Below the pieces are notes generated by a model. It saw only the letters and a program-made list of their open reading frames with translations, was not told the DNA's origin and did not search any database. This document shows positions 22,426 to 45,271 of a DNA stretch of 64,000 nucleotides, piece by piece. The position numbers and the translations under genes were made by a program. The stretch comes from Thermomicrobiales bacterium (GTDB lineage: Bacteria; Chloroflexota; Chloroflexia; Thermomicrobiales; UBA6265), in the NCBI GenBank assembly GCA_050696075.1, contig JBOGUF010000149.1:10507-74506 (forward strand), in the 5' to 3' direction. Positions within the stretch are counted from its first letter, which is position 1. Every line of letters begins with the position of its first letter.

Positions 22426-22532
22426 GCCAGGGTCCTGACGGGTAGTCAGCGTGCGGCGTGGCGCTATGGTTTCAACGATACCGCACTGGTAGCGGTTTTC
22501 GATATGAGCGTGGTGAGACAGGTTGGTGCGGT

Positions 22533-22568
22533 GGTTGGCCAGGTTGGCCAAGTTGGCCAGGTGGACAA
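22533..22568. repeat. tandem nonamer array (GGTTGGCCA x3-4) upstream of the LuxR gene
   Basis: ggttggccaggttggccaagttggccaggtggacaa read directly. Each unit contains the palindrome TGGCCA. Confidence 0.75.
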
Positions 22569-22943
22569 GCTGGAGCAATCGGACCGTGGGGCAGCGGGGG
22601 CCGCCCTGGACTAAAGTCGGGGCTCGGTGACGGCAGTCGGCTGGAAGCCGACTGCCCGCGGGCCGGGTGTGTCGATGATTCGGGCGATGGCACAGGGCAG
22701 CCGCTTGGTTGATCAGGTTGATCGCGGGATCAATCTGGGGTGGGTGAGAGACGACGAAAAGCGCCCTCTATCTATTAAGGCATTGATTTTTGGGGCAAAA
22801 TGGGACTCAGATTTCGATTATTGATCATGTGGTTATGTGTATTGTTGTGTCGTTCGTCGCGCTCGCTGGCTCCGATGCGGCGGGGAAGGACATGAGAGAA
22901 TGGGCGGTTATCGAGTGGTCATCCGTGGCGGTGATACGGGCGA

Positions 22944-23207
22944 ATGGATGGATTGTCCGTGGAGATAGCGAACGAGGAGATGCGGCGGTTGGCGGAGGAA
23001 CTCGCGGCGCTGACGAGCGAGGATGTGACGACGGCGATGACGGAAGCGATTCGAGAACGATTGGAACGCGTACGGTGCGAGCGAGGGAACGGCCTCGCGG
23101 AGCGACTCCTGGCAATCGGCCGAGATTGCGCGGCGCATCTGCCTGAGCCGGGGCGGTCCATCGATCATGGGGAGCTGCTGTACGACGAGCGTGGGTTGCC
23201 GCGGTAA
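22944..23207 (+). CDS. vapB: type II antitoxin VapB-like, orphan (no cognate PIN gene)
   Basis: 87 aa and clearly paralogous to 28412..28666. Shared sequence includes [10 protein letters not shown]...[14 protein letters not shown]. It is followed by no PIN ORF. Confidence 0.75.
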   Translation: MDGLSVEIANEEMRRLAEELAALTSEDVTTAMTEAIRERLERVRCERGNGLAERLLAIGRDCAAHLPEPGRSIDHGELLYDERGLPR

Positions 23208-23221
23208 ATGCGTTCGATTGA

Positions 23222-23542
23222 TCACCGAGTTACAACGGCACGCTGTTCAGCGAAGCGGGCGACCGCTTGTTCGTACGTTTCGCCGACGTGCGTGCGGGGA
23301 AATGCCTTGAACGTGTAATACGGTTGGTATGGTGATTCGGGCGGGAGTTCCGAACGCGCAGGCTGCTTCTTGAGCACCTCCGAGATGTCCCGACGGCTCG
23401 GTGAGTAGGCCAGTACGAAGCCCCGCACGGGTTCGGTGTACTGGTTGAAGACGGTCACCTTCATCAACACCCACTCACCGTAGTAGCGGGCAATCGCTTC
23501 GTCGAAGGTCTGCTCTTGTGGTTCGAGCGTCGATTCGTCCAC
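23222..23542 (-). CDS. hypothetical protein
   Basis: 106-aa ORF starting 60 bp downstream of a thyX-tail copy. No family recognised. Confidence 0.5.
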   Translation of the reverse strand: MDESTLEPQEQTFDEAIARYYGEWVLMKVTVFNQYTEPVRGFVLAYSPSRRDISEVLKKQPARSELPPESPYQPYYTFKAFPRTHVGETYEQAVARFAEQRAVVTR

Positions 23543-23602
23543 GGTCGTCTCCCCGCCGGTTGCCTAGGGTGATAGCGGCACCGATTTCGACAGAAGCCAA
23601 TC

Positions 23603-23701
23603 CTACATCGCCCGCCGTGCTTCCAAGTCCTCGAACTGGTCGTCGCGCCAGACGGGGATGTCGCGGTCGGGGTCGCCTTCGGGGCAGATGGGTTTGGCGG
23701 C
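23603..23701 (-). pseudogene. copy of the thyX-like gene 3-prime end (fragment)
   Basis: Reverse translation gives AAKPICPEGDPDRDIPVWRDDQFEDLEARRAM*. The thyX C-terminus is AAKPICPEGERYCGIPVWREYQFEELEARRVM*. Confidence 0.85.
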
Positions 23702-23774
23702 TGTCCTTTCGTACGTTATAACAGCGTATCAATGCTTACTCGACTTGTCCGTCCGGAAAAATGGGAGAGGTAAC

Positions 23775-24020
23775 GTGAGATCCCTTGAGCTGGTGGTGCC
23801 GGACGACCTCTACGCATCGGTCAGCGAAATCGAGATGCACAACCTGGCTCAGGAGGCACTCTTGGTCAGATTGTACGAACTCGGAAAGATTGGCTCGGGT
23901 CGTGCGGCTCAGGTTCTCGGCATCTCGCGCCGAGCATTCCTAGTTGATGTGCTCGGCCGCTACGGCGTGTCGTCGTTCGACGAGGAACTGGATTTGGCTG
24001 CCGAAGTTGCCCGTGGCTGA
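23775..24020 (+). CDS. UPF0175 family antitoxin-like protein
   Basis: GTG start after GGGAGAGG. LVRLYELGKIGSGRAAQVLGISRRAFLDVLGRYGV matches the UPF0175 pattern. 8-nt overlap with the downstream DUF3368 gene. Confidence 0.75.
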   Translation: MRSLELVVPDDLYASVSEIEMHNLAQEALLVRLYELGKIGSGRAAQVLGISRRAFLVDVLGRYGVSSFDEELDLAAEVARG

Positions 24021-24510
24021 ACAGTCACCTCTCGTGACGCCCGTCGTCAGCGATACAAGCCCACTGATCAGCCTCGCTGCTGTCGGCCTCATGTACCTCT
24101 TGCGTGATCTCTATCGAGAGATTGTCATCCCGGCCACCGTGCGCGACGAGTACGAGGTCGGCCGTCGGCCATCCGAGCCGCCTCTTCAGAACCTTACTTG
24201 GATCACGATCTCAGGCCTGGCACCCGACCTGTCGATCCCTGCTGCGCTCGACCCCGGTGAATCTGCCGCCATTGCGCTCGCGGTGCATATTCGAGCGCGC
24301 GCACTTCTGCTCGACGAGCGAATGGGGCGGCTGGTTGCTACCGAGCTCGGACTACCCGTGGTAGGCACCATGGGGGCGTTGTTGCGTGCGAAGCAGGCAG
24401 GTTTCGTCAAGGAAGTAAGACCGACGGTCGACGAGATGATTGCTCAGGGCATCCGCATCGGCCCTGCCGTGCGCTCGCAGGTGCTGCACATGGCCGGGGA
24501 AGACACGTAA
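24013..24510 (+). CDS. DUF3368 domain (PIN-like) toxin-like protein
   Basis: VVSDTSPLISLAAVGLMYLLRDLY...DPGESAAIALA...LLLDERMGR is typical of DUF3368. GTG start overlaps the stop of the upstream antitoxin-like gene. Confidence 0.8.
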   Translation: MAEQSPLVTPVVSDTSPLISLAAVGLMYLLRDLYREIVIPATVRDEYEVGRRPSEPPLQNLTWITISGLAPDLSIPAALDPGESAAIALAVHIRARALLLDERMGRLVATELGLPVVGTMGALLRAKQAGFVKEVRPTVDEMIAQGIRIGPAVRSQVLHMAGEDT

Positions 24511-24610
24511 TCGTCAATTCCTTCGAGACCACGACGCTGGATTCGACGTGCGATATTCATGCTGTCGTAGCGTTCGCTCGTTTCGGCTCCTTTGGGACAG
24601 CGACTTCTCG

Positions 24611-24686
24611 TTAGATCACCCGCCGCTTCTCCAACTCCTCGAACTGGTCGTTGCGCCAGACGGGGAGGCCGCGGTCGCGCTCGCCG
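24611..24686 (-). pseudogene. copy of the thyX-like gene 3-prime end (short fragment)
   Basis: Reverse translation gives ERDRGLPVWRNDQFEELEKRRVI*. Confidence 0.8.
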
Positions 24687-24745
24687 AAAGCGGAAAAGGT
24701 ATTCCTGTTTACAGTTGAGGCAACGCTTTGTAAGATCATTGGCAA

Positions 24746-25528
24746 GTGGAACGAAAATCAATACTTCGGCGAGTATCCGGCCGAAATCGCGACGATGCTT
24801 GCCACCGATTCAGGCAATTCAGGTTGTCGCTTTTCTGGTGGGTGACCGGAATAGACTCGTTAAGGATGATCGAGTGCGGTGGAGGCAATCGCGTGTCAAC
24901 GTCCCAGAGTCAGCCAACCAGCCTTTCCAACGAACAGTGGGAACAGTTCAGGAACAGCTTCGACGTTTGGCGCGCTCAGTCGAGCGCCAGTGACCAAGCA
25001 TTGTTCCAGCAGCCAATTGACGACAAGGCAACGCGCGCGGCCTTGCAACGAATTTTTCTCAACCACCCCGTGTACAGGAACTTGACTGTAAGGGAGGCTC
25101 TATTCCTTCTACGGCGAGAGGCACGAGATGCGATCGCGGCGTGTCGTGTCTTGCAGGCCAAGCCTGCCCCCTTTACACCGGACGAACAATCCCATCTCCT
25201 CCAACTCGACGCGGTTTGGTCCCAGTTTGGCGGATCGAATTGGTCACAGGTTGATTTCGCCGAATTGGCAGAGAAACGACTCGGATTTGAGTTCGCGCGC
25301 GACCATGGGCATACAAGGCCGAGGATTGCAGACAACGAGGGGGCAATTGAGGACTTGCAGAAGGGATGCGGCTGTCTGTTCCTGGGATTGCTCGTTACAG
25401 GCGGCACTTACCTGGTGGCTCGCGATGGAGGAACCTACATTGTGGCTTGGGGAGCCGTCGCCTGGGGACTCATCATGGTCTTATTGGCATTGCTGCGAAT
25501 CTTCAGCCAGCGAGTGCGCTCAAAATAA
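24746..25528 (+). CDS. hypothetical membrane-anchored protein (start uncertain)
   Basis: 260-aa ORF in a visibly AT-richer segment with two C-terminal TM helices. The real start may be internal, for example the ATG at 24866. Confidence 0.5.
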   Translation: MERKSILRRVSGRNRDDACHRFRQFRLSLFWWVTGIDSLRMIECGGGNRVSTSQSQPTSLSNEQWEQFRNSFDVWRAQSSASDQALFQQPIDDKATRAALQRIFLNHPVYRNLTVREALFLLRREARDAIAACRVLQAKPAPFTPDEQSHLLQLDAVWSQFGGSNWSQVDFAELAEKRLGFEFARDHGHTRPRIADNEGAIEDLQKGCGCLFLGLLVTGGTYLVARDGGTYIVAWGAVAWGLIMVLLALLRIFSQRVRSK

Positions 25529-25573
25529 CAGAGTCTTGGTCGCGCAAGGTCTCTTGATCAGCCACCGACGCCC

Positions 25574-25951
25574 CTAGAACAGCGCGGGGGCATCCAAACT
25601 CGACGAGGTAACCTGTTCGGGATCCAGTCCGTAAGTTGATGCCACCTTCTTTACAAGACTGTAGAGCCAGCCGGGGGATTCAGGAGCCACGTAAATCTTG
25701 TCGATTAGGGTATTGAGGTCCACGTTGATCTGAGTTCCGACCGCGATCTCCGAAGACGCGGGGGGTTTATGTAAGTGATAGTAAGGAAAGCACATAGCGC
25801 GTGCCTCGCGTTCATGTTCATAGCTCTTTCGTTTGTAAAGCAGCGCATAGGACACACGGCTCCTCGGAATCCTATCAGTATCAAAAGCAATGTACTTAAC
25901 TCTCCCGATTCGCACTGGAATCGAATCCCTAGGGTCGAATCTGTCGCGCAA
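25574..25951 (-). pseudogene. DUF2971-like protein, C-terminal fragment
   Basis: LLYKRKSYEHEREARAM resembles the conserved DUF2971 C-terminal motif. Separated from the N-terminal fragment (27307..27573) by the IS256 element. Confidence 0.6.
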
Positions 25952-25956
25952 CGGTC

Positions 25957-27316
25957 AAGTCCTCGAAGTTCTGTAAATTCCTCCGTGTCGTCGTTTCGTC
26001 GTAGTTGTGGTTAGTCCGCGGCGGTCGCCAGCGGCGTCGTTGGCTGGTCACGGGTGCGTCCCTGGTGGGTCATGTCCAGATACCGGCGCCCGCTCACCCA
26101 CTCCTCGCTCTGCTCCATCGCCAGCGCCGTCACCAACCGCAGCAGACTCGCCCGGTGCGGAAAGATGCGTACGACGCGGGTGCGTTGCTTGAGCTCCTGG
26201 TTGAGCCGCTCGACTCCCTTGGTCGTCCGGAGGCGCGTGCGGTGTTCGGCTGGGAAGCCCAGGCAGGTCAGTGCGTCGTCCAGATCGTCTTCCCACCGGA
26301 TCGCTAATGCCGGGTGGGTCGCTCGCCAGCGATCAGCGGCGTCCTGGGCCGCCGCGGTCGCCTGGCTATGGGTGCTCGCCGCGAAGATGCCGCGCAAATC
26401 GTCCGCCAGTTCTCGTCGGCGTCGCTGGCTGACGGTGGAGAGCAGGTTCCGGGTGACGTGGACCTGGCACCGCTGCCCGCTCGCCCCGTGGACGTGGCGT
26501 TCCATCGCCGCGTGCCAGCCCCGGTGGTCGTCACTGGTCACCCGTTCCACCCCGCGCCGTCCGCGCTCCTTGAGGGACCGGAAGAGGGTCTGGTAACTCG
26601 CCTCGTTCTCGGTATCGGCAACATCGACGGCCAGGATCTCACGCTGCCCATCACGCCGCACACCAGCCACGATCAGCACGCCCTGATTCACCACCCGACC
26701 GTCGCTCCGGACATGCTCGTAGCGCGCGTCCACCGCCAGGTACGGGTACGCTTGGTCCGTCAAGGTTCGGGTGCGCCATGCCGCCCGCTCGCCGTCGAGC
26801 CGACTCGTCAATGCCGAGACCTGGCTCGTGGAGAAGCTCATCCCACACAGCTCCTCGGTGATCGCGGCCACCTTTCGGGTCGAGACCCCCTGCACATACA
26901 TCTCCATCAAGGGGCTCACCAGCGCCTGCTCACTTCGCTGATACCGGGCGAAGAGCTCCGTCGAAAAGACGCCCTCCCGGTCTTGGGGAACGGCTAACGG
27001 CACCGCCCCCACCCGGGTCACCAGCGTCCGTGGCTTGGTGCCATGGCGGTACCCGGTGCGCCCCGCTGCGCGTTCATACCGCTCCGCCCCCAGATGCGCA
27101 CTCATTTCGGCTTCCAGGATTGCCTGCACGGTTCGCTCGACCAGACCCCGCGGAACCTCCGGATCGTCGATCAGCATTGGTCCTGTGGAACTGCGATCAC
27201 TACCATTGCTCATGGCCCTCGGTTGCTCCTCCTGATGGCGTGCGTCAACACCGCTATCGTGGAGGACGGTGGCCACCTCGGTCATCCGGCCACCTTTTAC
27301 AGAACTCTACGGACTC
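25957..27316 (-). mobile_element. IS256-family insertion sequence
   Basis: Imperfect terminal inverted repeats aagtcctcgaagttctgtaaa (25957-25977) and tttacagaactctacggactc (27296-27316), 16 of 21 matching. They enclose the transposase gene. No direct target duplication found. Confidence 0.8.
26011..27285 (-). CDS. IS256 family (Mutator-type) transposase
   Basis: 424 aa. Characteristic blocks LEAEMSAHLGAERYER, YPYLAVDARYEHVR, LIVAGVRRDGQREIL, QRCQVHVTRNLL and TTKGVERLNQELKQRTRVV. Confidence 0.92.
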   Translation of the reverse strand: MTEVATVLHDSGVDARHQEEQPRAMSNGSDRSSTGPMLIDDPEVPRGLVERTVQAILEAEMSAHLGAERYERAAGRTGYRHGTKPRTLVTRVGAVPLAVPQDREGVFSTELFARYQRSEQALVSPLMEMYVQGVSTRKVAAITEELCGMSFSTSQVSALTSRLDGERAAWRTRTLTDQAYPYLAVDARYEHVRSDGRVVNQGVLIVAGVRRDGQREILAVDVADTENEASYQTLFRSLKERGRRGVERVTSDDHRGWHAAMERHVHGASGQRCQVHVTRNLLSTVSQRRRRELADDLRGIFAASTHSQATAAAQDAADRWRATHPALAIRWEDDLDDALTCLGFPAEHRTRLRTTKGVERLNQELKQRTRVVRIFPHRASLLRLVTALAMEQSEEWVSGRRYLDMTHQGRTRDQPTTPLATAAD

Positions 27317-27573
27317 AATCCCTCGGCCGCGTCTGAGGCAATAAGGTCGATGGCTTCGTCTCCGGCAACCTCCAGATTGTTTTCATCGTAGCGATTGACC
27401 AAATTCCGTCGGGGATACGACCCCTCAAAGCGATCTCCACGTTTGTCAGCACGGGAAAAGAATAGTGCGGAGTCACTCAAAAGAGTGACGAACTTAGTGA
27501 AGTCCATGAACCGCCAAATCTTGGCATTTTCCGTTGGCCGAAGGGGGCTGCATGCAATGCTTGAACTTGGCAT
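27307..27573 (-). pseudogene. DUF2971-like protein, N-terminal fragment
   Basis: IWRFMDFTKFVTLLSDSALFFSRADKRGDRFEG matches the DUF2971 N-terminal motif. The ORF ends inside the IS terminal repeat. Confidence 0.6.
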
Positions 27574-27595
27574 CGACTCGCGGACCGCGCTATCT

Positions 27596-27940
27596 TCATG
27601 CGTAGTACAGAATGCCGTCGTCGAACAGTTCCTTGGGATCGGGGCGTCCTGAGCCACCAATTGTCCCGTCGGGACGTAGATACTGGTGGACGAGAGCGAT
27701 GCGCTGGCCGGCGGCGTCGAGGTATGCGACCATTTGACTACGGGTGCCTGGAGGTTCGGCCGGACTGCTGGGAGGACATTCGTCCCACAGCACTTGTGTG
27801 AACCCTCCGGCCTGTGCTCGCTGCCAATAGTCGCCGTCGTGGAAGCGCTGCCGTAGTTCCCACGGGCTGACGCGCTGGCGAGGAGGCCGATCCAATGAGG
27901 ATTCCTCTCGATCAAGCAATCCTTGACCAGCTTTCGGCAT
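27596..27940 (-). CDS. hypothetical protein
   Basis: 114-aa ORF (..VAYLDAAGQRIALVHQYLRPDGTIGGSGRPDPKELFDDGILYY). Its 5-prime end overlaps the divergent ORF 27895..28149, so the start is uncertain. Confidence 0.45.
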   Translation of the reverse strand: MPKAGQGLLDREESSLDRPPRQRVSPWELRQRFHDGDYWQRAQAGGFTQVLWDECPPSSPAEPPGTRSQMVAYLDAAGQRIALVHQYLRPDGTIGGSGRPDPKELFDDGILYYA

Positions 27941-28149
27941 TCTTGGCCGATGAAATCTCGCTCGACGAGTTTAAGGACTGGCTGGTCGACGCGACGTGGC
28001 ATCTTACTCCAGATGATGAATCGTCGGCTGCCAGGCTTGCCATCCGCATCAAGCACCGACTTGCCGAGCATTCGAGCGGGTACATCTCCGATGACGCGTT
28101 GAGGCAAGTACTTCGGCCCTACTCCCCTCAGCCGGTTGCTCGTGCATAG
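27895..28149 (+). CDS. hypothetical protein
   Basis: 84-aa ORF with helical, acidic composition. No family recognised. Confidence 0.45.
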   Translation: MRIPLDQAILDQLSAFLADEISLDEFKDWLVDATWHLTPDDESSAARLAIRIKHRLAEHSSGYISDDALRQVLRPYSPQPVARA

Positions 28150-28219
28150 GCCCAAAGCGGGATCACCGATGGACGTCCGCCGTGCCCTAATCCCTCGCTC
28201 CTGAATCCTGTCCCCTGAA

Positions 28220-28354
28220 TCACATCACCCGCCGGTTCTCTAATTCCTCGAACTGGTAGGCGCGCCAGACGGGGATGCCGCAGTAGCGTTCACCTTCGGG
28301 GCAGATCGGTTTAGCGGCGGAGCGGGCGCGCATGACGCGGGGGGCCGTCGACGT
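28220..28354 (-). pseudogene. copy of the thyX-like gene 3-prime end (fragment)
   Basis: Reverse translation gives (YVDG)PPRVMRARSAAKPICPEGERYCGIPVWRAYQFEELENRRVM*. Nucleotide similarity to 34132-34270 is obvious by eye. The stop sits at the end of a short CTGAATC/CTGTCCC heptamer array (28201-28221). Confidence 0.88.
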
Positions 28355-28370
28355 AAGAACAAGCCGGGCA

Positions 28371-28379
28371 TGGTAGAAT
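28371..28379 (+). promoter_or_regulatory. candidate extended -10 promoter element for vapBC
   Basis: tggtagaat (TGnTAGAAT) ends 32 nt upstream of the vapB ATG. It lies immediately beside the border of the thyX-tail copy. Confidence 0.4.
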
Positions 28380-28411
28380 TGATCTAACGATGAGGTAGAA
28401 AGGTAGAACAT

Positions 28412-28666
28412 ATGGGATTGAACATCAAGAACGCCGAGACGCAACGGCTCGCACGAGAGCTCGCAACTCTGACCGGCGAGAGCATGACGGCGGCCGTGAC
28501 CGAAGCCGTGCGAGAGCGGCTCGACCGCGTACGTCGGGAACAGGACGATGGCTTGGTCGATCGTCTCCTGGCGATCGGTCGGGATTGCGCGGCGCACATG
28601 ACGGAACCCTATAGGTCCGTCGATCATGGCGATCTGCTCTACGACGAGCGCGGGTTGCCAAGGTGA
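28412..28666 (+). CDS. vapB: type II antitoxin VapB
   Basis: 84 aa. 4-nt overlap with the downstream PIN gene. Confidence 0.85.
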
Positions 28667-29058
28667 TCGTCGACACGTCGGCGCTGATCGCCATTCTTCG
28701 TGACGAAGCCGAGGCTGAGCTGTGTGCCACGGCAATCCGACAAGCGAGCGTCCGGCGCATCTCGGCCGCTAATTTTCTCGAGGCCGCTGTCGTCGTCGAC
28801 GGGAGCCGCGACCCGATTGCCAGCCGCCGCTTTGATGAGTTTTGTCGCACGGCCAACCTTTTGATCGAACCGGTGACCGAAGCACAGGCGCGGATCGCGC
28901 GGGCCGCCTACCGGGACTTCGGCCGTGGCAGCGGACATCCGGCGCGGCTGAACTTCGGAGACTGCTTTGCTTACGCGCTGGCCAAGGTGACGGGCGAACC
29001 GCTGCTCTTCAAGGGCGATGACTTCGTCCACACAGATATCAAGCCGGTCTCCGCGTAA
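28663..29058 (+). CDS. vapC: type II toxin VapC (PIN domain ribonuclease)
   Basis: 131 aa. [12 protein letters not shown] (first acidic residue) and [11 protein letters not shown] motifs typical of VapC. Confidence 0.9.
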
Positions 29059-29103
29059 AACAACCTCCTCACCGCACTAACCCGACGTGGCCTGACCCTT
29101 GAC

Positions 29104-29229
29104 TCACATCACCCGGCGCGCTTCCAACTCCTCAAACCGGTCGTCGCGCCAGACGGGGAGGCCGCGGTCGGGGTCGCCGTCGGGGCAGATCGGTTTGGCG
29201 GCGGAGCGGGCGCGCATGACGCAGGGGGA
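29104..29229 (-). pseudogene. copy of the thyX-like gene 3-prime end (fragment)
   Basis: Reverse translation gives PPCVMRARSAAKPICPDGDPDRGLPVWRDDRFEELEARRVM*. It begins 9 nt after the stop of the anti-sigma-like gene. Confidence 0.88.
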
Positions 29230-29238
29230 GGCCGGCGA

Positions 29239-29583
29239 TTAGGCGGGCGGTCGGCGGGCCACCTGCCCGCGTCGCGAGCCGACGACGGACCATCCAACGG
29301 CGATGAGAAGGAGGAACAATCCGACGACGCCGACAACTTGCGACGCGCGCCGACGCCGGTGCGCCGCGCGCAGGTCATGACGCCGCGCGAATTGGGCGAC
29401 GATCGCCGCCCGCGCCGCCGGGTCGTCGACGCGGGGATAGTGCTCCTGCAGCAGCCGGGTGACGTCGTCGTCGGTTTCCAGCCGCGACCATCGCGGCCCA
29501 CGGATCGTGCGCCCGGTGTCGTCGGAGTCTCCGCCATCGGTTGCCGCCGGGTGATCGCCCGGCAGTCCTTCGGGAGTCGGCAT
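29239..29583 (-). CDS. putative anti-sigma factor / single-pass membrane protein
   Basis: The ATG at 29583 lies 17 nt after the sigma gene stop and has a GAGGG RBS. One TM helix (VVGVVGLFLLLIAVGWSVVG). The assignment rests on position downstream of the ECF sigma gene. Confidence 0.55.
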   Translation of the reverse strand: MPTPEGLPGDHPAATDGGDSDDTGRTIRGPRWSRLETDDDVTRLLQEHYPRVDDPAARAAIVAQFARRHDLRAAHRRRRASQVVGVVGLFLLLIAVGWSVVGSRRGQVARRPPA

Positions 29584-29599
29584 CGTCGTCGGTACGCCC

Positions 29600-30196
29600 T
29601 CAGCCTTCTTGCTCCGCGTCCCGAACGTACGCATCGTAGCGCAGTCGGAACTGTTGCTGCGCCCGGCTGATCCGGCGTTCGGCCGCGGCAATGGAGATCC
29701 CGAGGACGCCGGCCACCTCCGGGGCGGTGAGCCCCTTCAGGCTGTGCAGAAGCAGCGCCTCGCGCAACGCCGGACTGAGGTCAGCAAGCACCCGCTCGAC
29801 CAGCTCCCGTTCGCCGACGACGGCGAACTCGTCGGGTTGCCGCGATCCAGAGAGGACTTGCTCGGCCTGCCCCGGCTGTTCGCGCAGCCATTCCATCGAG
29901 ACAACCTGCCGCCGTCGCTGCTTCCGCCGCGCCGCCCGCAGGCGGTTCTGGGCGATGCGATAGAGCCAAGCGCCGAAATCGCGTTCGGCCCCCGGCTGGT
30001 CGAGATCGATAAGCGTGACGAGGAAGCTGTCTTGGGTGAGGTCAGCGGCCAGATCCGGATCGCCAGTGCGGCCGGTGAGGTAGCGCACCAGGAGCGGGTA
30101 GTAGCGCTCGACCAGGACCGTCCAGGCGGTCTCTGAGCCCGCGCGGGCGGCCACGACGAGCTGGGAGTCGGTGGACGAAGCGTCGGCGGAGGACAT
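29600..30196 (-). CDS. RNA polymerase ECF-type sigma-70 factor
   Basis: 198 aa. Region 2 (YYPLLVRYLTGRTGDPDLAADLTQDSFL, WLYRIAQNR) and region 4 (LKGLTAPEVAGVLGISIAAAERRISRA). Confidence 0.9.
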   Translation of the reverse strand: MSSADASSTDSQLVVAARAGSETAWTVLVERYYPLLVRYLTGRTGDPDLAADLTQDSFLVTLIDLDQPGAERDFGAWLYRIAQNRLRAARRKQRRRQVVSMEWLREQPGQAEQVLSGSRQPDEFAVVGERELVERVLADLSPALREALLLHSLKGLTAPEVAGVLGISIAAAERRISRAQQQFRLRYDAYVRDAEQEG

Positions 30197-30408
30197 CGTT
30201 GGCCCCAGAGCGAGCGGTCACTCTGCTTCTCCGCTCGATCTTTGTCCGGGGTAGTAGAACTCGAGATGCCAAACAAATGAGGAGGATGGGCTGGCCCGTT
30301 GTGGCTACGGCACGGCCAATCGGAGGTTGATGTCCGGTTGTGGGTCCCTCATGCACTTAACAGAGTAGAAGGACGTAGCTGCAGGGATACGCGACGGAGA
30401 GCGGAAGC

Positions 30409-31056
30409 ATGGAAGGATGGTGGCTAGCCTCCTACATAGGACTCTGGGGAGCAGTACTTCTCCAAGTGCTCGTCATCCTGGGGCTCGCGCGAGAAGTCGG
30501 GACCATGCGTCTCCATGACGGTTCCCCAGGCGCGCTAAAGTCGGATGTCGGACTCGCTCAGGGCAGCGCCGCTCCTGAGTTCGCGGCGACGGAGGTGCCC
30601 AGCGGTCGAGTCGTTCGCTTTCATGCTGCGGAGCGGCACCGGACGTTGTTGACGTTTGTTGCACCGAAATGTGTCCCTTGCCACCGGCTACTGTCCGAAA
30701 TTACAGGTGGTTGGGGCGATTCGAGTCGGAATCTTCGAGTCCACGTGGTCTGCGAGGGAGACGAAGCCGAGGCGAGTGCATTGCTGCGACAGATTGGCCT
30801 CAGGATACCTCTGCTCTCTGACCCCGGTGCCAAGATACGTGGGTTCTACGGCAATCCCCCGATTCCATTCGCGTACCTGATCAATGAACGTGGAGTCATC
30901 GCACAACGGGGCATTGTGAACACCCGCAACGATATTGAGCGGCTAATCGATGGCCATACTCACCTGCCACACGGGCATGATGGGATACCTGAAAGCCCAT
31001 CACCCAGCGGAACGATGTCGGCATCGGAAATCCCGGCCCAGTCGGGGAGGAGCTAG
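30409..31056 (+). CDS. MauD-like membrane-anchored TlpA/redoxin-family thiol-disulfide oxidoreductase
   Basis: 215 aa with an N-terminal TM helix, the CxxC motif PKCVPCH, and LINERGVIAQRGIVNTRNDIERLI resembling the MauD C-terminal region. The MauD comparison is from memory. Confidence 0.75.
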   Translation: MEGWWLASYIGLWGAVLLQVLVILGLAREVGTMRLHDGSPGALKSDVGLAQGSAAPEFAATEVPSGRVVRFHAAERHRTLLTFVAPKCVPCHRLLSEITGGWGDSSRNLRVHVVCEGDEAEASALLRQIGLRIPLLSDPGAKIRGFYGNPPIPFAYLINERGVIAQRGIVNTRNDIERLIDGHTHLPHGHDGIPESPSPSGTMSASEIPAQSGRS

Positions 31057-31059
31057 TTC

Positions 31060-31494
31060 ATGGAAAAGTGGATTGACGCCTTGTCATCAAGGCTGGCCCA
31101 GCGAACGTCGCGGAGAGGCGTGATCGGATTGAGTGGTCGAGCGCTCCTAGCTGTCAGCGCCGCCATATTCGGGATGGCTGCTAGGTCGGATAGCGTGGCC
31201 GCTGCCTGCTCAACATGTGGCGGTGGCGGATGCAGCGACGGCGTCGGCCGCCCCTGCGGCGGCACCGGCAACGGAACCTGCTATCCCCAATCGCTCCGGC
31301 TGTACGGTGGTAACTGCACCACCGGCGGCAACTGTAACGCGGCGGCTGGGCTGACAAATGGCTGGGTCTGGTACTGCTGCGATCCGCACTTGCAGATTAT
31401 CAAGTGTCAGGATTGCTGCGACAGCGATACCTCGGAATTCGTCGGCTTTTGCCAATCGTTTACTGGTTCCTACTGCGCCTCGCCAACGCCGTAA
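31060..31494 (+). CDS. Tat-exported cysteine-rich protein, methylamine dehydrogenase light chain (MauA)-like
   Basis: 144 aa. Leader MEKWIDALSSRLAQRTSRRGVIGLSGRALLAV resembles the long MauA Tat leader. The mature part has 14 Cys. TNGWVWYCCDP...QDCCD resembles the MauA ASWVASCYNP...RDCCG block. Confidence 0.65.
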   Translation: MEKWIDALSSRLAQRTSRRGVIGLSGRALLAVSAAIFGMAARSDSVAAACSTCGGGGCSDGVGRPCGGTGNGTCYPQSLRLYGGNCTTGGNCNAAAGLTNGWVWYCCDPHLQIIKCQDCCDSDTSEFVGFCQSFTGSYCASPTP

Positions 31495-31578
31495 GGACTG
31501 TCAGGCAGTAGAAGCGGAGGACGTGGGTTCTCTTGGCTGGAAACAGTTCATCTGAAGCTAGACGGTAAGGAGGTAGTC

Positions 31579-31743
31579 ATGGCGGGAATTGGAGCCCACG
31601 CTCGCTTAGTTACCGCGGCGACAAGCGGAGCGGTAGCAACAGCCGTCGTGGCCACAATAGGATGGTCACTGACCTGGGTGCTGTTCACCGGCAGCTTGGT
31701 GTTGGAGAGCGTTGTCGGGATGTCCAAGGCCAGCACTGCCTGA
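31579..31743 (+). CDS. small hydrophobic protein (54 aa), below ORF-track cutoff
   Basis: Manual translation gives MAGIGAHARLVTAATSGAVATAVVATIGWSLTWVLFTGSLVLESVVGMSKASTA*. It is preceded by a strong RBS (taAGGAGGtagtc ATG). Confidence 0.55.
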   Translation: MAGIGAHARLVTAATSGAVATAVVATIGWSLTWVLFTGSLVLESVVGMSKASTA

Positions 31744-31752
31744 GGGCTATCG

Positions 31753-32379
31753 ATGATCGGGACGATCAGCCCCCTCGTGCAGGAGGCGCGAAGCCAATGG
31801 TGGCAAAGCAGCGCCCTTCATTCCCTGGGAAGTGTTGCGGGCGGAGTGATCACATTGGGGGCGCTGGGAGGGCTCGGTTACTTCCTCATGAGGGGAATTG
31901 ATCAGACCGCACGCTGGGCAGCCTTCGGTCTGATCACCCTCTTGCTGGCTTTAGGGGAGTTGGATGTGCTTCGGTGGCCGCTCGTGCGGACCGCACGGAG
32001 CGTCCCCAAGTCTTGGTGGCAGGATTGGGGCCCGAGACGAGGAGCGTTCACCTACGGGTTTGTCCTAGGGCTGGGCGTCACTACTGTCATTCCGTTTGGA
32101 ACCTACTACGCAATGGCCGCCGGAGCGCTTCTCGTGGGCGATATCCTCTACGCCGTAGGAGTAGGTGTCGCATACGGTCTTGGTCGTGCCTTACCAGTTC
32201 TCGTCGTGGGTGCAGCCTTAGTGTACCCCCACCATGCGGCCACACCGCGGGTGGTCACGACGCAGATTACAGAGAAGATACTCGGCTCTCGGAGGACCGC
32301 ACATCTGGTTAATGGCCTTGTGGGGGCGAGCTTTGCGGGAGCAACCGCAATAACTGTGGCAGTGAGCCTATGGTCATAA
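31753..32379 (+). CDS. integral membrane protein (DsbD_2/CcdA-like topology, no Cys)
   Basis: 208 aa with about 6 predicted TM helices and Gly-rich helices. Family assignment is tentative. Confidence 0.65.
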   Translation: MIGTISPLVQEARSQWWQSSALHSLGSVAGGVITLGALGGLGYFLMRGIDQTARWAAFGLITLLLALGELDVLRWPLVRTARSVPKSWWQDWGPRRGAFTYGFVLGLGVTTVIPFGTYYAMAAGALLVGDILYAVGVGVAYGLGRALPVLVVGAALVYPHHAATPRVVTTQITEKILGSRRTAHLVNGLVGASFAGATAITVAVSLWS

Positions 32380-32849
32380 CTGATGTAAAGGATAACGATC
32401 GTTCCTGTGAAGTCGTCTGCGTGACAACGCGCTTGCGTTTCCGAGGGCTGTGCGCACTCGTCAAGTTTCTCCTTGCTTATCGGCACGTACGCCAGGACTT
32501 GCATGGTGCTCTTGGATTGATGCATGTGTCACTCGTGTGGGAGCGGCCCTCTACTGTCTATATTCTCTCCATCTGGCGTTCGGAGGAACTAATGCGTCGA
32601 TGGGTTGGCACCGAGGCCCATGTAAGTGCGGTTCGCCAAACGTACCGCAATCTCACGCACGAAACATGGTCGGGTCTGTGGCGGCTCAATGCCGTTAGCC
32701 CAAGCGCGCGGCGTTGGCCGTCGGCTCCAACGATGGAGGCGACACCGCCGGTATGCGCCCCCGGAGTTCCGGATTGGCCATCTCCAGGGCGCAGCAGCCG
32801 GACGTGCGACTTGATCACGAATATCCTTGCGACAATGTGGCGAGTATAA
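32370..32849 (+). CDS. hypothetical protein (possibly DUF3291/ABM-like)
   Basis: 159-aa ORF. VTTRLRFRG...LSIWRSEELMRRWVGTEAHVSAVR resembles the DUF3291 pattern. Weak call. Confidence 0.4.
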   Translation: MVITDVKDNDRSCEVVCVTTRLRFRGLCALVKFLLAYRHVRQDLHGALGLMHVSLVWERPSTVYILSIWRSEELMRRWVGTEAHVSAVRQTYRNLTHETWSGLWRLNAVSPSARRWPSAPTMEATPPVCAPGVPDWPSPGRSSRTCDLITNILATMWRV

Positions 32850-32976
32850 ACATAATGTAATCTACGATACATCATGTTTGGACGATCGACAGGGTGCAGA
32901 CGAACCAGTTGGCACTTTAGGCAGTATGGTTGATGGATTGTGCCATGCGGGGTATTGCATCTAGCACACGAGGAGG

Positions 32977-34080
32977 ATGCCGATGTCATGGGTGCGTAGG
33001 CTGGTCGGGATCGTTGCCGTGACCGTGCTCGGTCTGGGCGCCACCGCGCATGCCGATGTCCCTGCCGCGCCGGCGCGAGACTTCGTCGCTATCGAAGAAC
33101 GGGGCGTCGTGCACGTTGTCGATCCGGCTACTGGTGACGTGTGGGAGCAGTTAGGAGGTCACGGCGCCTTGGCGAGCGTGGCCGCCACGAGTGGACACGT
33201 CTATGTCAGCGTGGCATCGACCGATGGCAGTGGCACCATGGTGTTCGCCATTTGGATGCCGACCGCCCACCGCGAGTCGATCGGGCATCTGCCGGAGGTG
33301 GCGTTGGCAAACAGGCTGTCTCCGACCGGCGACCGCTTATATGTGACCGCGTTCGTGAACGGCTCCCCCATCACGACGCCCAGCGCGACGATCAGCTTGC
33401 CCCTTCCCGACGGTGGGCTGACCAAGCCCGACAACACCGCCGCCCGCGACGCGGGTGGCGGTGTCCTATCTCCCGAAGGGACGCGGTGGTATCGTCTACG
33501 CACCCTATGGAAGGAGGATCGGATAGAGGGGGTCGAGTTGCAAGCGCTGGCCTTCCAGGAGGGGGGCACGCCAATCGAATCGACCCTCCGGCTGCCGATG
33601 TCCGACTACCACTCGCTCCTCATGGCGCCGAACGGACGCACCCTGTTCGCCGTCGACTACGGAGGTGCGTTCAACCAGCAGCAAACCATTCACGTTATCG
33701 ACGCCGGACATGATCAGCCTACTCTGGCGCGGTCGATTGCGATCCAACGGGGGCCAACAAAGGCCCTGCTGTGCCAAGCTGCCCTCTCACCCCAGGGTGA
33801 CCGACTGTATGTGGCATCACACGACGGCCCAGCCCGGCACGGGATATTGGTGTTTGACACCGACTCCTGGGAGCGGGTTGCGCACCTACGCCCGGATGAC
33901 GCGTATCGGTGCCTGGTCGTCTCCCCCGATGGCGACCGGCTGTACGGGGCAGCAAAGGCCTCGGGCGGGTATGCTCTGGTGACGATCGACGCGCGGACGG
34001 GGGCTGAGCTCCGGCACGTGCCGCTGGAACTGGACAGCGGCTGCTGCCCGTCCGTTCTTCTGGCAGTCGCCTCTGAATGA
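32977..34080 (+). CDS. secreted beta-propeller repeat protein (YVTN/YncE-like; possible amine dehydrogenase heavy-chain analogue)
   Basis: 367 aa with a signal peptide (VLGLGATAHA). Repeated SP.GDRLYV motifs (LSPTGDRLYVTA, LSPQGDRLYVAS, VSPDGDRLYGAA). The stop lies 51 bp from the convergent thyX stop. Confidence 0.7.
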   Translation: MPMSWVRRLVGIVAVTVLGLGATAHADVPAAPARDFVAIEERGVVHVVDPATGDVWEQLGGHGALASVAATSGHVYVSVASTDGSGTMVFAIWMPTAHRESIGHLPEVALANRLSPTGDRLYVTAFVNGSPITTPSATISLPLPDGGLTKPDNTAARDAGGGVLSPEGTRWYRLRTLWKEDRIEGVELQALAFQEGGTPIESTLRLPMSDYHSLLMAPNGRTLFAVDYGGAFNQQQTIHVIDAGHDQPTLARSIAIQRGPTKALLCQAALSPQGDRLYVASHDGPARHGILVFDTDSWERVAHLRPDDAYRCLVVSPDGDRLYGAAKASGGYALVTIDARTGAELRHVPLELDSGCCPSVLLAVASE

Positions 34081-34131
34081 CCTTGGCCGCGGTCATCGCC
34101 ACGTTGCGGGATAGGCGCTGAGCCCCCGGGG

Positions 34132-35871
34132 TTACATCACTCGCCGTGCTTCCAACTCCTCGAACTGGTACTCCCGCCAGACGGGAATGCCGCAGTAGCG
34201 CTCGCCTTCGGGGCAGATCGGCTTGGCGGCGGAGCGGGAGCGCATGACGCAGGGGGGGCCGTCGACGTAGCGGCCGATGGTGGGGTGGACTTCCCGGATT
34301 TGGGCGACTTCCTGGCGGGCGGTGGCGAAGATTTCGCGCTGGGCGTCGTAGCAGAGGCGCTTGATCCACTTCCAAAAGTAGGTGAGTAGGGTACCGCTCT
34401 CGTAGAAGCGGACACGGTGGGCGTTGGGCAGGAGGTAGAGGGCGACTTCCGGGGCGACGCCCTGGTCGAGCAACGCGTTCTTCGCGTCCCAGAGCGCTTG
34501 GACGGTGGCGTCGTACTCGGCGCGGGCAGCCGGGTTGCGGGCAATGGCCCAGGGGAGGATGACGTCCGGGTCGCGGCGGAGGTGGGCGCTGAGGATGGGG
34601 CCGGAAGAGAGGGTGCCGCGGTGGCGCTGGTTTTGGGCTTCTTCCGCGCCGCTGATGCGCTTCTGGAAGGTGAAGGGAACGTGGTTCATCGTTTGCATCA
34701 GCTTCGAGTGCATGCCGAGGAAGAGGGCGTGGCCGAGGTACGGATTCTGTGAGCCATCGAGGACCTGAGCGATGGCGTCCTCGTCGGAGAGGGCGTCCGG
34801 GGTGAGGCCGAGGACGGTGCGGACGGCGTCGGCCATCGTCCGCTCGGCGGCGGGATTGTGGCTGATGAGCTTGCTGTCGAGGTCACCGAGCTCCTCGTCG
34901 AAGCGGCGGCAGAAGGCTTCCGTCTCCTCCGGGGTTTGGGCGAGGTTGGCTTGCCAATTGGCCAAGGCCTCAGCTTCGAGCGTGTCGTCGGTGCTGAGGG
35001 CGCGCAGATCGAGCGGGTGGTCGGGCGCGCCGAGGAAGTAGGGATCGAGGGCGAGGACTTCTTCGACCATGCGGTTGACGATGAAGCGGACCTCGGTCGG
35101 GGCGTCCGGTTGGTTGGCGAGGGCGTGGTAGCGGAGCAAGGTGAGCCCGTTGACGGTGTGATAGAGGTGGGCCGGGGTGGCGAGGGGGAGGACGTAGCGG
35201 GCGACTTCTTGGGCGCGCTTCTGGACGGCGCCGGCGACGCGCTCCTCGGCCCGTGGCCCCTTCGCCTTGGCACGGGCGGGAAAGACGGTGGCGTAGTCGC
35301 GCTGAAAGTCGGGGATGAGGATCTCGGTGAGGCGGCGGTAGCCCTCGAGGCTGCGCTCGATGGCGTCCTGGTAGATCGACAGCATCGGCTCGGGCAACGC
35401 CGGCGTGACCATGACCTTGCCGGAGACTTCGCGGTAGCGCTGGGAGACCTGCTCCGAGTTATAGAAGGGGTGGGCGTGGAAGAAGGACCAGATCGCCAGG
35501 CGGGAGACATTGTCGAGGACGAAGACGAAGGTGGCGTGCTGGAGGGTGGTGTGGTGGCCGGCGGCGAAGAGATCGGCGTAGAGCTTGAGGGTGCGCTGGC
35601 GGCGGTCTTCGCGTTCGGCGGCCTTTTCCGGGCTGAGACCTTCCGGGGCGGGGCCGTGGATGAGTTTGAGGACGTTCTCGACCTTGGCCGGGCGGGCGCC
35701 GTAGCAGGACCAGGCGGCGGCGACGGAGAGGGCGAAGGGGTGGTGGCTCGATTCGTCGCGCAACAGGGTGACGACGGGCGCGGCGGAATGGAACGGCGAC
35801 GGTGCGTGGCCGTTCGATGTCGCGGCCGGTGTTTGGGTGGTGGTTGGTTGTTCAATCACGGTGGCCGACAT
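34132..35871 (-). CDS. thyX: FAD-dependent thymidylate synthase ThyX-like, long two-lobe form with Cys-rich C-terminal tail
   Basis: ThyX motifs HHTTLQHATFVF..SEQVSQRY (first lobe, with RHR degenerate) and QNQRHRGTLSS (second lobe). Start placed at the ATG at 35871, with a GGAGG RBS 10 nt upstream. The track ORF N-terminus (MLRCLSMTT) is a translated REP element. Confidence 0.85.
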   Translation of the reverse strand: MSATVIEQPTTTQTPAATSNGHAPSPFHSAAPVVTLLRDESSHHPFALSVAAAWSCYGARPAKVENVLKLIHGPAPEGLSPEKAAEREDRRQRTLKLYADLFAAGHHTTLQHATFVFVLDNVSRLAIWSFFHAHPFYNSEQVSQRYREVSGKVMVTPALPEPMLSIYQDAIERSLEGYRRLTEILIPDFQRDYATVFPARAKAKGPRAEERVAGAVQKRAQEVARYVLPLATPAHLYHTVNGLTLLRYHALANQPDAPTEVRFIVNRMVEEVLALDPYFLGAPDHPLDLRALSTDDTLEAEALANWQANLAQTPEETEAFCRRFDEELGDLDSKLISHNPAAERTMADAVRTVLGLTPDALSDEDAIAQVLDGSQNPYLGHALFLGMHSKLMQTMNHVPFTFQKRISGAEEAQNQRHRGTLSSGPILSAHLRRDPDVILPWAIARNPAARAEYDATVQALWDAKNALLDQGVAPEVALYLLPNAHRVRFYESGTLLTYFWKWIKRLCYDAQREIFATARQEVAQIREVHPTIGRYVDGPPCVMRSRSAAKPICPEGERYCGIPVWREYQFEELEARRVM

Positions 35872-38002: not shown

Positions 38003-38019
38003 CGCCGCGCTCCTTGCCG

Positions 38020-41389: not shown

Positions 41390-41749
41390 GATTCCTCCCC
41401 CCGTTCCGCGCATTCCCCTGCCAGTTAATACGCACGACGCGGCGTTTGGTTTATCCGCGCCCCGTGCCGCGCCGGTCGCTTGCTACCGATTGTACGCACC
41501 AACGTGCTCGACGCCAACAACCGGGCGTACTATCGGGGCGGTCCATTCGTTCGGATGGGCGTGCGGGAGCGGTGGAAGGCGCGGGAATTGAGGGGGGTGG
41601 AACGAGTGAAGCGAGTGTTGAATGCCGATGACCCGGGGATAAATCCCCAGGCTCCACCGACGAAGCCCTTCCCAGGCTGTGCTGATCGCGCATTGAGTTT
41701 AATCCAGCGAGGCGGCAGCTACCGAGGACCCAGATGACACGGTGCTGCC

Positions 41750-42097
41750 ATGTACCGTGCCTATTACGCCGCCTTTAGCAGTGCGGCGGAGTATCTCCTG
41801 GCGAATACACCGAATCTTGTCCGAACCGCACTGACCCACGACACCGTCTGGCACGCGTTCCGCGACACGACCGATCGTGATCGCTGGACGATCTTCGACG
41901 ATGGCATGAATCTCAAACACCATAGGATCGACGCCGACTATTGGCGACCGATGGGGGTACGCCGGCCCCAATCCATTGTGCGCGACGTGCTCATTCGTTC
42001 GGCGCGGATTCTGCGCGTGCTTCAGCAAGTCCAGTCCTCGTTAGGATCAGATCGCCAGCAACTCCTCAACCTTGAACAGATCGGCGTTGAGGATTGA
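41750..42097 (+). pseudogene. degenerate paralog of the HEPN-like gene at 50106..50501
   Basis: Shares AAEYLLANTPNL..THD.VWH.F...RDRWTIFDDGMNLKHHRIDADYWRPM with the intact copy. It lacks the first ~40 aa; the upstream frame is broken by a frameshift and a stop. It reads through into the asd-tail copy. Confidence 0.6.
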
Positions 42098-42105
42098 GGG
42101 TCTGA
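42047..42105 (-). pseudogene. copy of the asd 3-prime end (fragment)
   Basis: Reverse translation gives PSILNADLFKVEELLAI*. The asd C-terminus is GASILNAELFRVEGLLPV*. Confidence 0.75.
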
Positions 42106-42253
42106 TGGAGTCGAGGACGGCGATGTGGTCGACGATCCGGTGGATTGGACAGGGACCGTGGGGCCGGCTTACAGGGCAATGTATGGGGGCGTGGAGCGGT
42201 TTGGTAAGATAGACGCAAAGTATCAGTGTATCGGTCGTGGCGAGGTGTGGGCG

Positions 42254-45200: not shown

Positions 45201-45271
45201 AGTTAGGGCACTCCTCGCGGACCCAGGTTGCGCTCTGGGCGCAGGCAAAGGGGCTAACGGACCCAGAGTGA
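42254..45271 (+). CDS. large LuxR-family regulator (LAL/MalT-like: AAA ATPase + TPR + LuxR HTH)
   Basis: Walker A GGEAGIGKSRL, TPR repeats, and the C-terminal HTH LTERERDVAALIARGKSNREIAADLFVSERTVATHVGNILAKLG. Start set at the ATG at 42254 (GAGGTG RBS). The track start at 42125 lies in the asd-tail copy. Confidence 0.88.
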   Translation: MVAPFDAPVVCPILVGRALHLASLQRCINQVLGGQGKLVLVGGEAGIGKSRLVTEARTLAEGQGMLGLQGHAFEPDRAVPYAPLLDLLRTFVASLAPEEVPRQLGPSGPELTKLVPELCGLLPAARPMPALDPAHEKRRLFHALGQFLSHQAETRPVLVVVEDVHWTDDTSLEWLRYLAGRIATRPILILLTFRNDEVGESLAHTLAELDRVRAVAELRLTRLSAADARAMVDAIVAGQRRFPGALINEIYALTDGNPFFIEEVLRSVIAARSDDGGGATAAIGGLPIPRGVEDAIQRRAAQLSEDARRTLTLAAVTGRRFDFTLLQALTRCGAADLLRQIKELIAAQLVVEESDERFAFRHALTRQAIDAGLLARERHALHREVAETIERTYAGALDEYVADLAQHFFEAGVWAKALEYARRAGENALGLHAPRAAVEHLTRALEAETRLGLPARARTRRDRGRAYETLGDFERARADDEAALEIALTAGDRREEWQALLALGMLWAGRDYARTGGYWRRALDVAREMGDASAIAHSLNRVGNWHTNIEEPHAARAYHQEALAIFETANDRRGIAETLDFLGMASYLGGDVLPAARYYERAVDLFGELDDRQGVVSGLAMMTIGSGDIAAYTKPSPITTFAERARAGELGELAVAITREIDWRSGEAYACFTTAICASAKGEYALALPRAHEALAIAREIEHRQWTTSSQIGLGILFLDLLDLAQAQRHLEQAVALANAIGSLYWVRMGSGFLASTLVARRDLARAESVLQTALGPDDPAQTLAQRRVWYARGELALARGDADLALRIVDQLVATADDGEDSNARSVPHLGRPRGAALAALGRPAEAEAAFQAARVGAEARGARPLLWRVHLALGDLFETQTRGDAAAREFAAARAIIEALAVDIPDDAVRATFLRGAAELHPRLRPLSPHQAAKRAFGGLTERERDVAALIARGKSNREIAADLFVSERTVATHVGNILAKLGHSSRTQVALWAQAKGLTDPE

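Follow-up and report, generated by a model that had tools for sequence, protein, structure and literature searches.

The question raised by this locus is why the 3' end of one gene should recur several times, always on the same strand, in the DNA that follows that gene. The stretch analysed, called the window below, is 64 kb of contig JBOGUF010000149.1 from a Thermomicrobiales bacterium. The gene is thyX (34132..35871, minus strand), which encodes an FAD-dependent thymidylate synthase of 579 amino acids (aa; Pfam Thy1, 1e-54). The protein is of the two-domain (tandem-domain) form and is 100% identical to a protein of the Thermomicrobiales metagenome-assembled genome GCA_975325355.1. Between thyX and the next backbone gene lies an insert of ~11.5 kb (22.6-34.1 kb) made up of five units, lettered A to E from the thyX side, with a GC content of 0.54-0.63 compared with ~0.69 in the flanks. 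The explanation to which we incline, with modest confidence, is the serial accretion of cassettes lacking an integrase at an attachment (att) site that stems from the end of the gene, with a recombinase supplied in trans or lost.

A repeat search of the window returned a five-member direct-repeat family at 23607-23678, 24615-24686, 28224-28295, 29108-29179 and 34136-34207. All five copies are on the thyX strand and bound the units of the insert. The last of them belongs to the resident thyX tail (34132..34269, minus strand), the presumed att-like target and the first copy of the repeat. A first-pass annotation of the same sequence had reported five same-strand copies of the thyX 3' end, and at the nucleotide level this is borne out: blastn-short searches with each copy against the 64 kb gave exactly five places, with E-values from 4e-8 to 3e-33 against the thyX tail. 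A 23-nucleotide (nt) core had four matches at up to three mismatches and none in 100 shuffles. When the copies are read in the orientation of the gene their likeness stops at the stop codon, except for 13 nt more that are common to the copies at 29104 and 28220. The 5' start of the likeness varies, lying ~130, 138, 75 and 99 nt from the stop in the copies at 29104, 28220, 24611 and 23603 respectively.

The resident tail and the other four copies differ in their condition. An alignment of 38 ThyX homologues gave C541, C553, R558, C560, G561 and W565 as invariant in the C-terminus, and the resident gene keeps every one of these residues, so that the target gene is intact. The copy nearest to thyX (29104..29233, minus strand, ~130 nt, stop TGA) is 86% identical to the resident tail and carries R558P, Y559D, C560R and Y568D. 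The next (28220..28355, minus strand, ~138 nt, stop TGA) is of the thyX-like ERYCG type and extends back to 'YVDG', with a 2-nt deletion that removes the C541 codon. The third (24611..24685, minus strand, 75 nt, stop TAA) has Y559D, C560R and Y568D, and the fourth (23603..23701, minus strand, 99 nt, stop TAG) has R558P, Y559D, C560R, G561D and Y568D. Judged by these sequences, the four extra copies, each damaged at invariant residues, are pseudo-tails and not alleles.

The copies at 29104, 24611 and 23603 share the replacement of Y559-C560 by D-R (TAC TGC to GAC CGC) and of Y568 by D (TAC to GAC), and will be called the DPDRG type. It had been suggested that this second tail type was imported from other thyX alleles and might be met with in intact thyX genes of other taxa. 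This is not supported, since the sequence CPEGER[YF]CG[IV]PVW is present in all 120 nearest ThyX proteins and in all 85 distinct Thermomicrobiales-type loci, and neither a DPDRG nor a WRDD motif occurs in any of them. The derived changes of the three copies are thus found in no intact thyX. Because the three share the same nucleotide changes they are not products of independent decay but related non-coding arms, descended from one another or from arms borne by cassettes.

The same annotation stated that every copy keeps an open frame and its own stop codon. The four stop codons are indeed there. The frame of the 28220 copy is not maintained, and its 'PPRVMR' reading is a frameshift artefact of the 2-nt deletion. 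An open frame is in any case weak evidence here, given that 38-58% of random 75-135-nt windows from the array region are open in a given frame. The open frame was rejected as a sign of selection, both because random windows are often open and because pseudo-tails in other genomes contain stops, frameshifts or lost stops.

Comparison with relatives shows that the insert is a variable feature. At locus L163, where thyX is 80% identical, the gene order is AA_kinase-asd-DinB_2-x-NUDIX-thyX-isochorismatase-LuxR/NB-ARC-Peptidase_MA and, further on, DUF58-BatA. The backbone genes and their order are as in the window, and no insert is found behind either asd or thyX; both sites are therefore empty. 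At L002 thyX is followed by 870 nt and then by a LuxR-type gene and the transporter genes of the window, and at L147 and L091 a LuxR-type regulator stands behind thyX as at an empty thyX site. The corresponding backbone gene in the window is a LuxR/NB-ARC/TPR regulator (20017..22578, minus strand; Pfam), which follows thyX in L002, L147, L091 and L163.

Other relatives have a different cassette in this position. Of the thyX genes with flanking data the closest (84%) is that of L162, and there a PIN-domain gene whose product is 76% identical (aa) to the VapC of unit B starts 15 nt past thyX. Unit B is the second unit in the window, but its PIN homologue comes first behind thyX in L162. L146 (thyX 86%) has a homologue of unit D (57-66% aa identity) directly behind thyX. 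At four further loci thyX is followed by one toxin-antitoxin (TA) pair that fills the space up to a same-strand pseudo-tail, with spacers of at most 160 nt. The pair is MazE+PIN in L096, with a pseudo-tail of 125 nt that is 91% identical to the resident tail and has no lesions at the invariant residues, and again MazE+PIN in L140, with a pseudo-tail of ~104 nt (87%) that has lost its stop codon. L139 has an Xre-like+RES pair and a pseudo-tail of 85 nt (94%) with C560R, and L166 has PIN+MazE and a pseudo-tail of ~149 nt (90%) with an in-frame TAG, a frameshift and a lost stop. With different cassettes behind thyX in L162, L146, L096, L140, L166 and L139, the array units are gained and lost independently, and the arrangement is not invariant among relatives.

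The frequency of such arrays was estimated from 79 loci in metagenomes, to which a few contigs retrieved by exact protein match were added. A thyX pseudo-tail was present at five of the 62 loci that have at least 1 kb downstream, and no second thyX tail was found within 10 kb at any of 43 species-representative Thermomicrobiales loci. When 1.85 Mb from the surroundings of thyX in 160 loci was compared with itself, gene-tail duplications came to light at thyX only.

A second array is found in the window itself, behind asd, the gene for aspartate-semialdehyde dehydrogenase (50490..51551, minus strand; a full-length open reading frame (ORF) with Pfam Semialdhyde_dh and Semialdhyde_dhC). The whole-window repeat search showed three copies of the asd tail, all on the asd strand and each with its own stop codon. 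The first is the resident tail, the last ~87 nt of the gene (50490-50576, minus strand). Pseudo-tail 1 (49659..49718, minus strand) reads RGASILNAERFKVEGLLPV up to a TAA stop, and pseudo-tail 2 (42047..42138, minus strand) ends in SIRPSILNADLFKVEELLAI before a TGA stop. The core common to all three copies is ATCCTCAACGCCGA, a part in which the coding sequence is also conserved. The resident tail and pseudo-tail 1 bound unit alpha1 (49719..50489, 0.8 kb), which contains two small overlapping ORFs at 49769..50113 and 49983..50501 (both plus strand) convergent with asd. Unit beta (42139..49658, 7.5 kb) comprises a PhdYefM + PIN_3 TA pair (48653..49515), an SGL-like protein of 421 aa, an SCO4226-like ORF and a LuxR/AAA regulator of 1048 aa (Pfam). 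It is followed, beyond pseudo-tail 2, by unit alpha2 (41480..42046), an older paralogue of alpha1 with a 115-aa ORF (41750..42097, plus strand), and then by the backbone DinB-like gene.

The resident asd tail and the next 290 nt are collinear with the 42047 copy and its next 290 nt, forming a block of ~380 nt with 74% identity. The asd tail is therefore inherited together with the unit that lies downstream of it. The alpha unit is rare, having only four homologues in 5.8 billion proteins, two of which are those in the asd array of the window. One alpha homologue adjoins a convergent gene of 303 aa that is truncated by the end of a 2.5-kb contig and occupies the position that asd has here. Every homologue whose context could be read adjoins asd or a pseudo-tail of it.

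Where the exchange takes place within a tail can be estimated from two cases. In L096 the resident tail and the pseudo-tail differ at 11 positions, all of them at a distance of 38-109 nt from the final base of the stop codon, and the 36 nt ahead of that base are free of mismatches (p about 0.01-0.02). In the window the 3' arm of the 29104 copy has CGN-TTT (encoding R-F), as does the functional tail that is linked to the unit-B cassette in L162, where the resident tail of the window has CAG-TTC. As R-F is common to the 29104 copy and the L162 tail, the terminal ~40 nt, if not more, act like earlier gene ends and move with the unit downstream of them. Features of the DPDRG type reach to codon 568. 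Taken together this suggests that crossing-over takes place around codons 565-569, some 40 nt ahead of the stop codon. The 5' arm of a pseudo-tail would then go with the neighbouring unit closer to the gene, and the 3' arm with the neighbouring unit farther from it. The sequence TCTGGCG is invariant in eight of eight resident/pseudo-tail pairs of thyX and is also conserved coding sequence. A difference in selection between the arms was considered, broken invariant residues being ~10% in 3' arms and 4% in 5' arms, and was dropped for want of sites.

The accretion that we propose would then run as follows. Small circular cassettes would integrate successively at the thyX 3' end, each by means of an att site that stems from the terminal 75-160 nt of the gene. 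Recombination would leave thyX intact and place the new cargo directly behind the gene, and a hybrid pseudo-tail would remain at the distal end of this cargo. The 5' arm of the hybrid would come from the cassette, and its 3' arm would be the earlier gene end, still joined to the older unit downstream. As new cargo would always land directly behind the gene, newer units should be nearest to it and older ones pushed away. The asd array of the window would have arisen by the same process. The recombinase would act in trans, in which case an autonomous element elsewhere is its likeliest source and a tyrosine-type integrase its likeliest kind, or it would have been lost. The units may have persisted because of their TA cargo. 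The first-pass annotation had taken the array for the trace of repeated integration into the 3' end of thyX. This agrees with the empty sites of L163 and L002, with the cassettes of L162 and L146 and with the R-F codons common to the 29104 copy and L162.

Several observations weigh against this proposal. As had been noted at first pass, the window contains no recognisable integrase: no integrase or resolvase was found in the 64 kb by Pfam searches of the window ORFs, in part judged from the top 25 families listed, or by a motif scan, which was noisy but agreed. No integrase appears in the gene lists around L166, L162 and L163, and among 99 ORFs downstream of thyX in relatives no integrase family recurs in the top 25 Pfam families listed; a single integrase could have escaped where the listing ends at 25 families. 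Three pattern scans of IMG/VR, one for the DPDRG type and two for thyX-type patterns, gave no match to a tail-like attP site on viral contigs, and a degenerate DNA pattern for the DPDRG-type tail had no match in JGI metagenomes. The likeness between cassette arm and gene, at 75-160 nt, exceeds the identity blocks typical of integrases. The 5' limits of the pseudo-tails vary and each pseudo-tail is nearest to the tail of its own host, the lineage-specific 'SAAKP' being an example; a process driven by homology would look alike. The position of the crossover rests on two cases. Finally, a second assembly of the locus has an identical array, with one mismatch in 21.7 kb, and so gives no sign of present activity in this organism.

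If the IS256-family transposase in unit C is set aside, the only protein in the window with a fold like that of the tyrosine recombinases is a topoisomerase IB. This is a bacterial type IB enzyme (55274..56377, plus strand; Pfam Topoisom_I and Top1B_N_bact) encoded 3.7 kb from asd, and nothing links it to the arrays. No tRNA or tmRNA gene was found in the window with ARAGORN, so the locus is not an island at such a target. No Rfam family matched the window, and the tails coincide with no signal resembling a promoter or a terminator.

The main rival explanation is insertion through RecA in the manner of Campbell, which would also account for the points concerning homology. A circle carrying cargo and a 3'-terminal fragment of thyX or asd would enter by a single homologous crossover, requiring no dedicated integrase. 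The cassette could loop out again between tail and pseudo-tail, and only 3'-terminal fragments would survive, as these spare the essential gene. We regard this as unlikely, though it fits the absence of an integrase, the use of two unrelated gene ends in one genome, the resemblance of pseudo-tails to the tail of their own host, 5' limits that range over 75-160 nt and the patchy mosaics within the 3' arms. RecA usually needs ~20-30 nt of exact homology. The longest exact runs are 31-43 nt in the younger cases, which is sufficient, but only 17-19 nt in the thyX array of the window, which is below the requirement and would mean that the process there is now frozen. Furthermore, longer homology should be favoured, yet all nine pseudo-tails are 60-160 nt long and none exceeds ~160 nt. 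The tail duplications in the 1.85 Mb from 160 loci lie at thyX and not at random conserved genes, and the hints of breakpoints cluster near one position.

The content of the units is as follows. Unit A (29234..34131, 4.9 kb) encodes a secreted beta-propeller-like protein of 367 aa, an ABM-like ORF, DsbD_2, a Cys-rich ORF of 144 aa, an AhpC/TSA redoxin and an ECF sigma factor with an adjoining ORF (Pfam). Unit B (28356..29103, 0.75 kb) is a compact pair of VapB (28412..28666) and VapC/PIN (28663..29058), both on the plus strand and thus convergent with thyX (Pfam). Unit C (24686..28219, 3.5 kb) has orphan ORFs, a membrane ORF of 260 aa and a gene that seems to be split by an IS256/Mutator-family transposase gene (26011..27285, minus strand; Pfam Transposase_mut, 1e-114); its fragments (27307..28155 and 25574..25951) have DUF2971-like motifs and no Pfam match. 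Unit D (23702..24610, 0.9 kb) is a TA cassette of UPF0175 and DUF3368 (PIN-like; Pfam), also compact and convergent with thyX. Unit E (22579..23602) has a 106-aa ORF (23222..23542, minus strand) and an orphan VapB (22944..23207, plus strand), and no distal tail copy was found beyond it. An ORF of 106-124 aa without Pfam match lies on the thyX strand after the last pseudo-tail both in the window (23222-23542) and in L139 (2251-2625), with 61% aa identity, and may represent an older unit or the ancestral neighbour.

Most of the cargo labels given at first pass agree with Pfam, which supports two VapB-like proteins (PSK_trans_fac), PIN, UPF0175 with DUF3368, IS256/Mutator and an ECF sigma factor, besides the redoxin and DsbD_2; the labels 'MauA-like' and 'DUF2971' found no support there. 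The family to which the unit-B VapC belongs is very large and widespread, with 76-83% identity across many sources. In another organism (L167-L173) a VapBC whose VapC is 83% identical to that of unit B lies, together with another pair of small genes, just upstream of the rpsJ ribosomal-protein operon, and no flanking direct repeats were found around it. The tail duplication therefore belongs to the integration site and not to the TA family.

Decay of this kind of cargo is the basis of a further explanation, somewhat less probable again than homologous crossover, in which the units are relics of large islands: integrative and conjugative elements (ICEs), integrative and mobilizable elements (IMEs) or prophages that entered at thyX and asd by integrases of their own and shrank by deletion until TA modules and att remnants were left, loss of the TA genes being counter-selected. 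The orphan VapB, the gene split by IS256 and the fragmentary ORFs in units C and E are signs of such decay, as are the frameshifts, stops or lost stops of pseudo-tails, and a cycle of integration, decay to a cis-mobilizable element (CIME) and new integration is a published scenario (PMC5704250). Against this, seven units (B, D, alpha1 and those of L096, L140, L139 and L166) consist of a single TA pair that fills the space from tail to pseudo-tail. The spacers in these compact units are -12 to 160 nt, and repeated deletions that were exact at both att sites are unlikely. No unit contains an integrase pseudogene or other island debris, and the alpha cassette family is known only beside asd tails. 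Simple decay of large islands accounts for units C and E, but not for the seven compact TA-only units.

It is very improbable that the array works as an integron, with the tail copies as folded attC-type sites, the thyX end as attI and an IntI-like enzyme acting on single-stranded hairpins. The short, TA-rich cassettes between repeats of 60-140 nt do recall sedentary chromosomal integrons. However, both strands of all five copies fold no better than shuffled sequences (z from -0.95 to +1.84) and show no conserved imperfect hairpin; the thyX-tail copies are therefore not attC sites. Nor is there an intI or integrase gene within 10 kb of the array, the gene beside the first cassette being thyX or asd. 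In addition, the cassettes lie in both orientations, some have several genes with their own regulators, and the two arrays have unrelated repeats. Local duplication of the thyX end by slippage or unequal crossing-over, with unrelated DNA inserted later between the copies, is hardly credible either and was already doubted at first pass: the copies are nearest to the tail of their own host, as 'SAAKP' would suggest, but the units between them are all different and of foreign composition, the architecture recurs with other cargo in other lineages and behind asd, and in L162 a functional tail goes with cassette B.

Some features of the window lie outside the two arrays or cut across them. There are three LuxR/AAA/TPR (NB-ARC-type) paralogues (9042-11468, 20017-22578 and 42125-45271), the third of them inside the asd array, and the first and second share stretches that are 81-93% identical (10391-10784 compared with 21396-21786). 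A 48-nt repeat containing GTCATGCTGAGGC and CGAAGCATCCCCGCGCG occurs at 13329-13376, 35928-35975 and 58691-58738, with copies 75-79% alike. Two of the copies are ~50-60 nt upstream of minus-strand genes, thyX among them; the repeat has no Rfam match and may be a regulatory or REP-like element. Genes for the alpha and beta subunits of nitrile hydratase and for a methyltransferase (36142-39632) separate the NUDIX gene from thyX, and no boundary repeats can be recognised around them. As NUDIX is directly upstream of thyX in L163, this segment is a further lineage-specific insert.

A bolder reading may be put forward as a speculation, namely that the Thermomicrobiales harbour minimal mobile cassettes consisting of a TA pair and ~100 nt of the end of an essential gene, without a recombinase of their own and perhaps moved by no site-specific enzyme at all. 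We think this doubtful. Were it so, the conserved terminus would be a portable landing pad, the insert would be fixed by TA addiction, integron-like arrays would grow at several housekeeping genes of each genome, and a concrete route would be available for the spread of chromosomal TA modules.

The mobility of TA modules between genomes is largely unexplained, and at least seven TA-only units with the footprint of a duplicated gene end point to a mechanism that can be tested. The locus also indicates that the 3' ends of essential protein genes, here thyX and asd, can be hot spots for accessory genes in a phylum that has been little studied, the 64 kb holding two such arrays. For annotation, pseudo-copies of gene tails mark island boundaries, and a naive reading would mistake them for alleles or small ORFs.

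It had been proposed that an array bounded by the terminus of a protein gene was undescribed. This was too strong, given that arrays bounded by gene termini have been published (PMC5704250, PMC3146451 and 10.1101/2020.12.28.424599). Accretion of CIMEs is known in streptococci, where integration and decay to a CIME are followed by new integration (PMC5704250). As in the window, the 3' end of a protein gene is targeted and restored by these CIMEs, ICEs and IMEs and the elements are bounded by its direct repeats; like the units here, CIMEs have no integrase, keep attL and attR and grow by tandem addition of new arrivals (PMC5704250). The differences are that the units in the window measure 0.75-5 kb, frequently consist of one TA pair and form runs of as many as five, that neither the array nor the window has a partner bearing an integrase, that the repeats are 60-160 nt and 80-94% alike, and that the host belongs to the Chloroflexota. 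Tn7-like elements likewise accumulate at a safe site, downstream of glmS or other conserved housekeeping genes, that is set by the 3' end of their coding sequence, but they leave a 5-bp duplication instead of a 60-160-nt copy of the gene end and need Tns proteins, for which there are no genes here. ICESt1 and ICESt3 reportedly integrate at the 3' end of fda (Pavlovic 2004, Bellanger 2011).

Within the same phylum, Dehalococcoides has islands in tandem downstream of one essential gene, ssrA, with direct repeats of its 3' end, and 15 of these islands are without an integration module (PMC3146451). There too a conserved mismatch between gene and repeat marks the arm that derives from the element. 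Unlike the arrays described here, the target is tmRNA, the repeat is 20 bp, a serine-recombinase module is mostly present and the cargo consists of reductive dehalogenase genes over many kb (PMC3146451). For the tycheposons of Prochlorococcus, successive integrations at the same site push older elements inward, and partial copies of the target gene and degenerate remnants are scattered in the island, as here; the targets described differ in being tRNA genes, and tyrosine recombinases, replication modules and experimentally shown excision are reported (10.1101/2020.12.28.424599).

Sedentary chromosomal integrons hold short TA-rich cassettes between repeats of ~60-140 nt, and their recombinase is not encoded by the cassettes. 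The present arrays differ in having no attC hairpin, intI or attI, in repeats that are the coding end of the neighbouring gene and in their mixed orientation. The literature searched contained no case of 0.75-1.2-kb single-TA cassettes with a 60-160-nt copy of a protein-gene end that have no integrase within them or close by and recur in the Thermomicrobiales, nor of arrays with as many as five of them in succession and with two essential genes as targets in a single 64-kb stretch. In the Chloroflexota this miniature, TA-only form at the ends of protein genes thus looks undescribed, while the principle that it shares with the systems above, integration into a gene 3' end, replacement of that end and tandem accretion, is already known.

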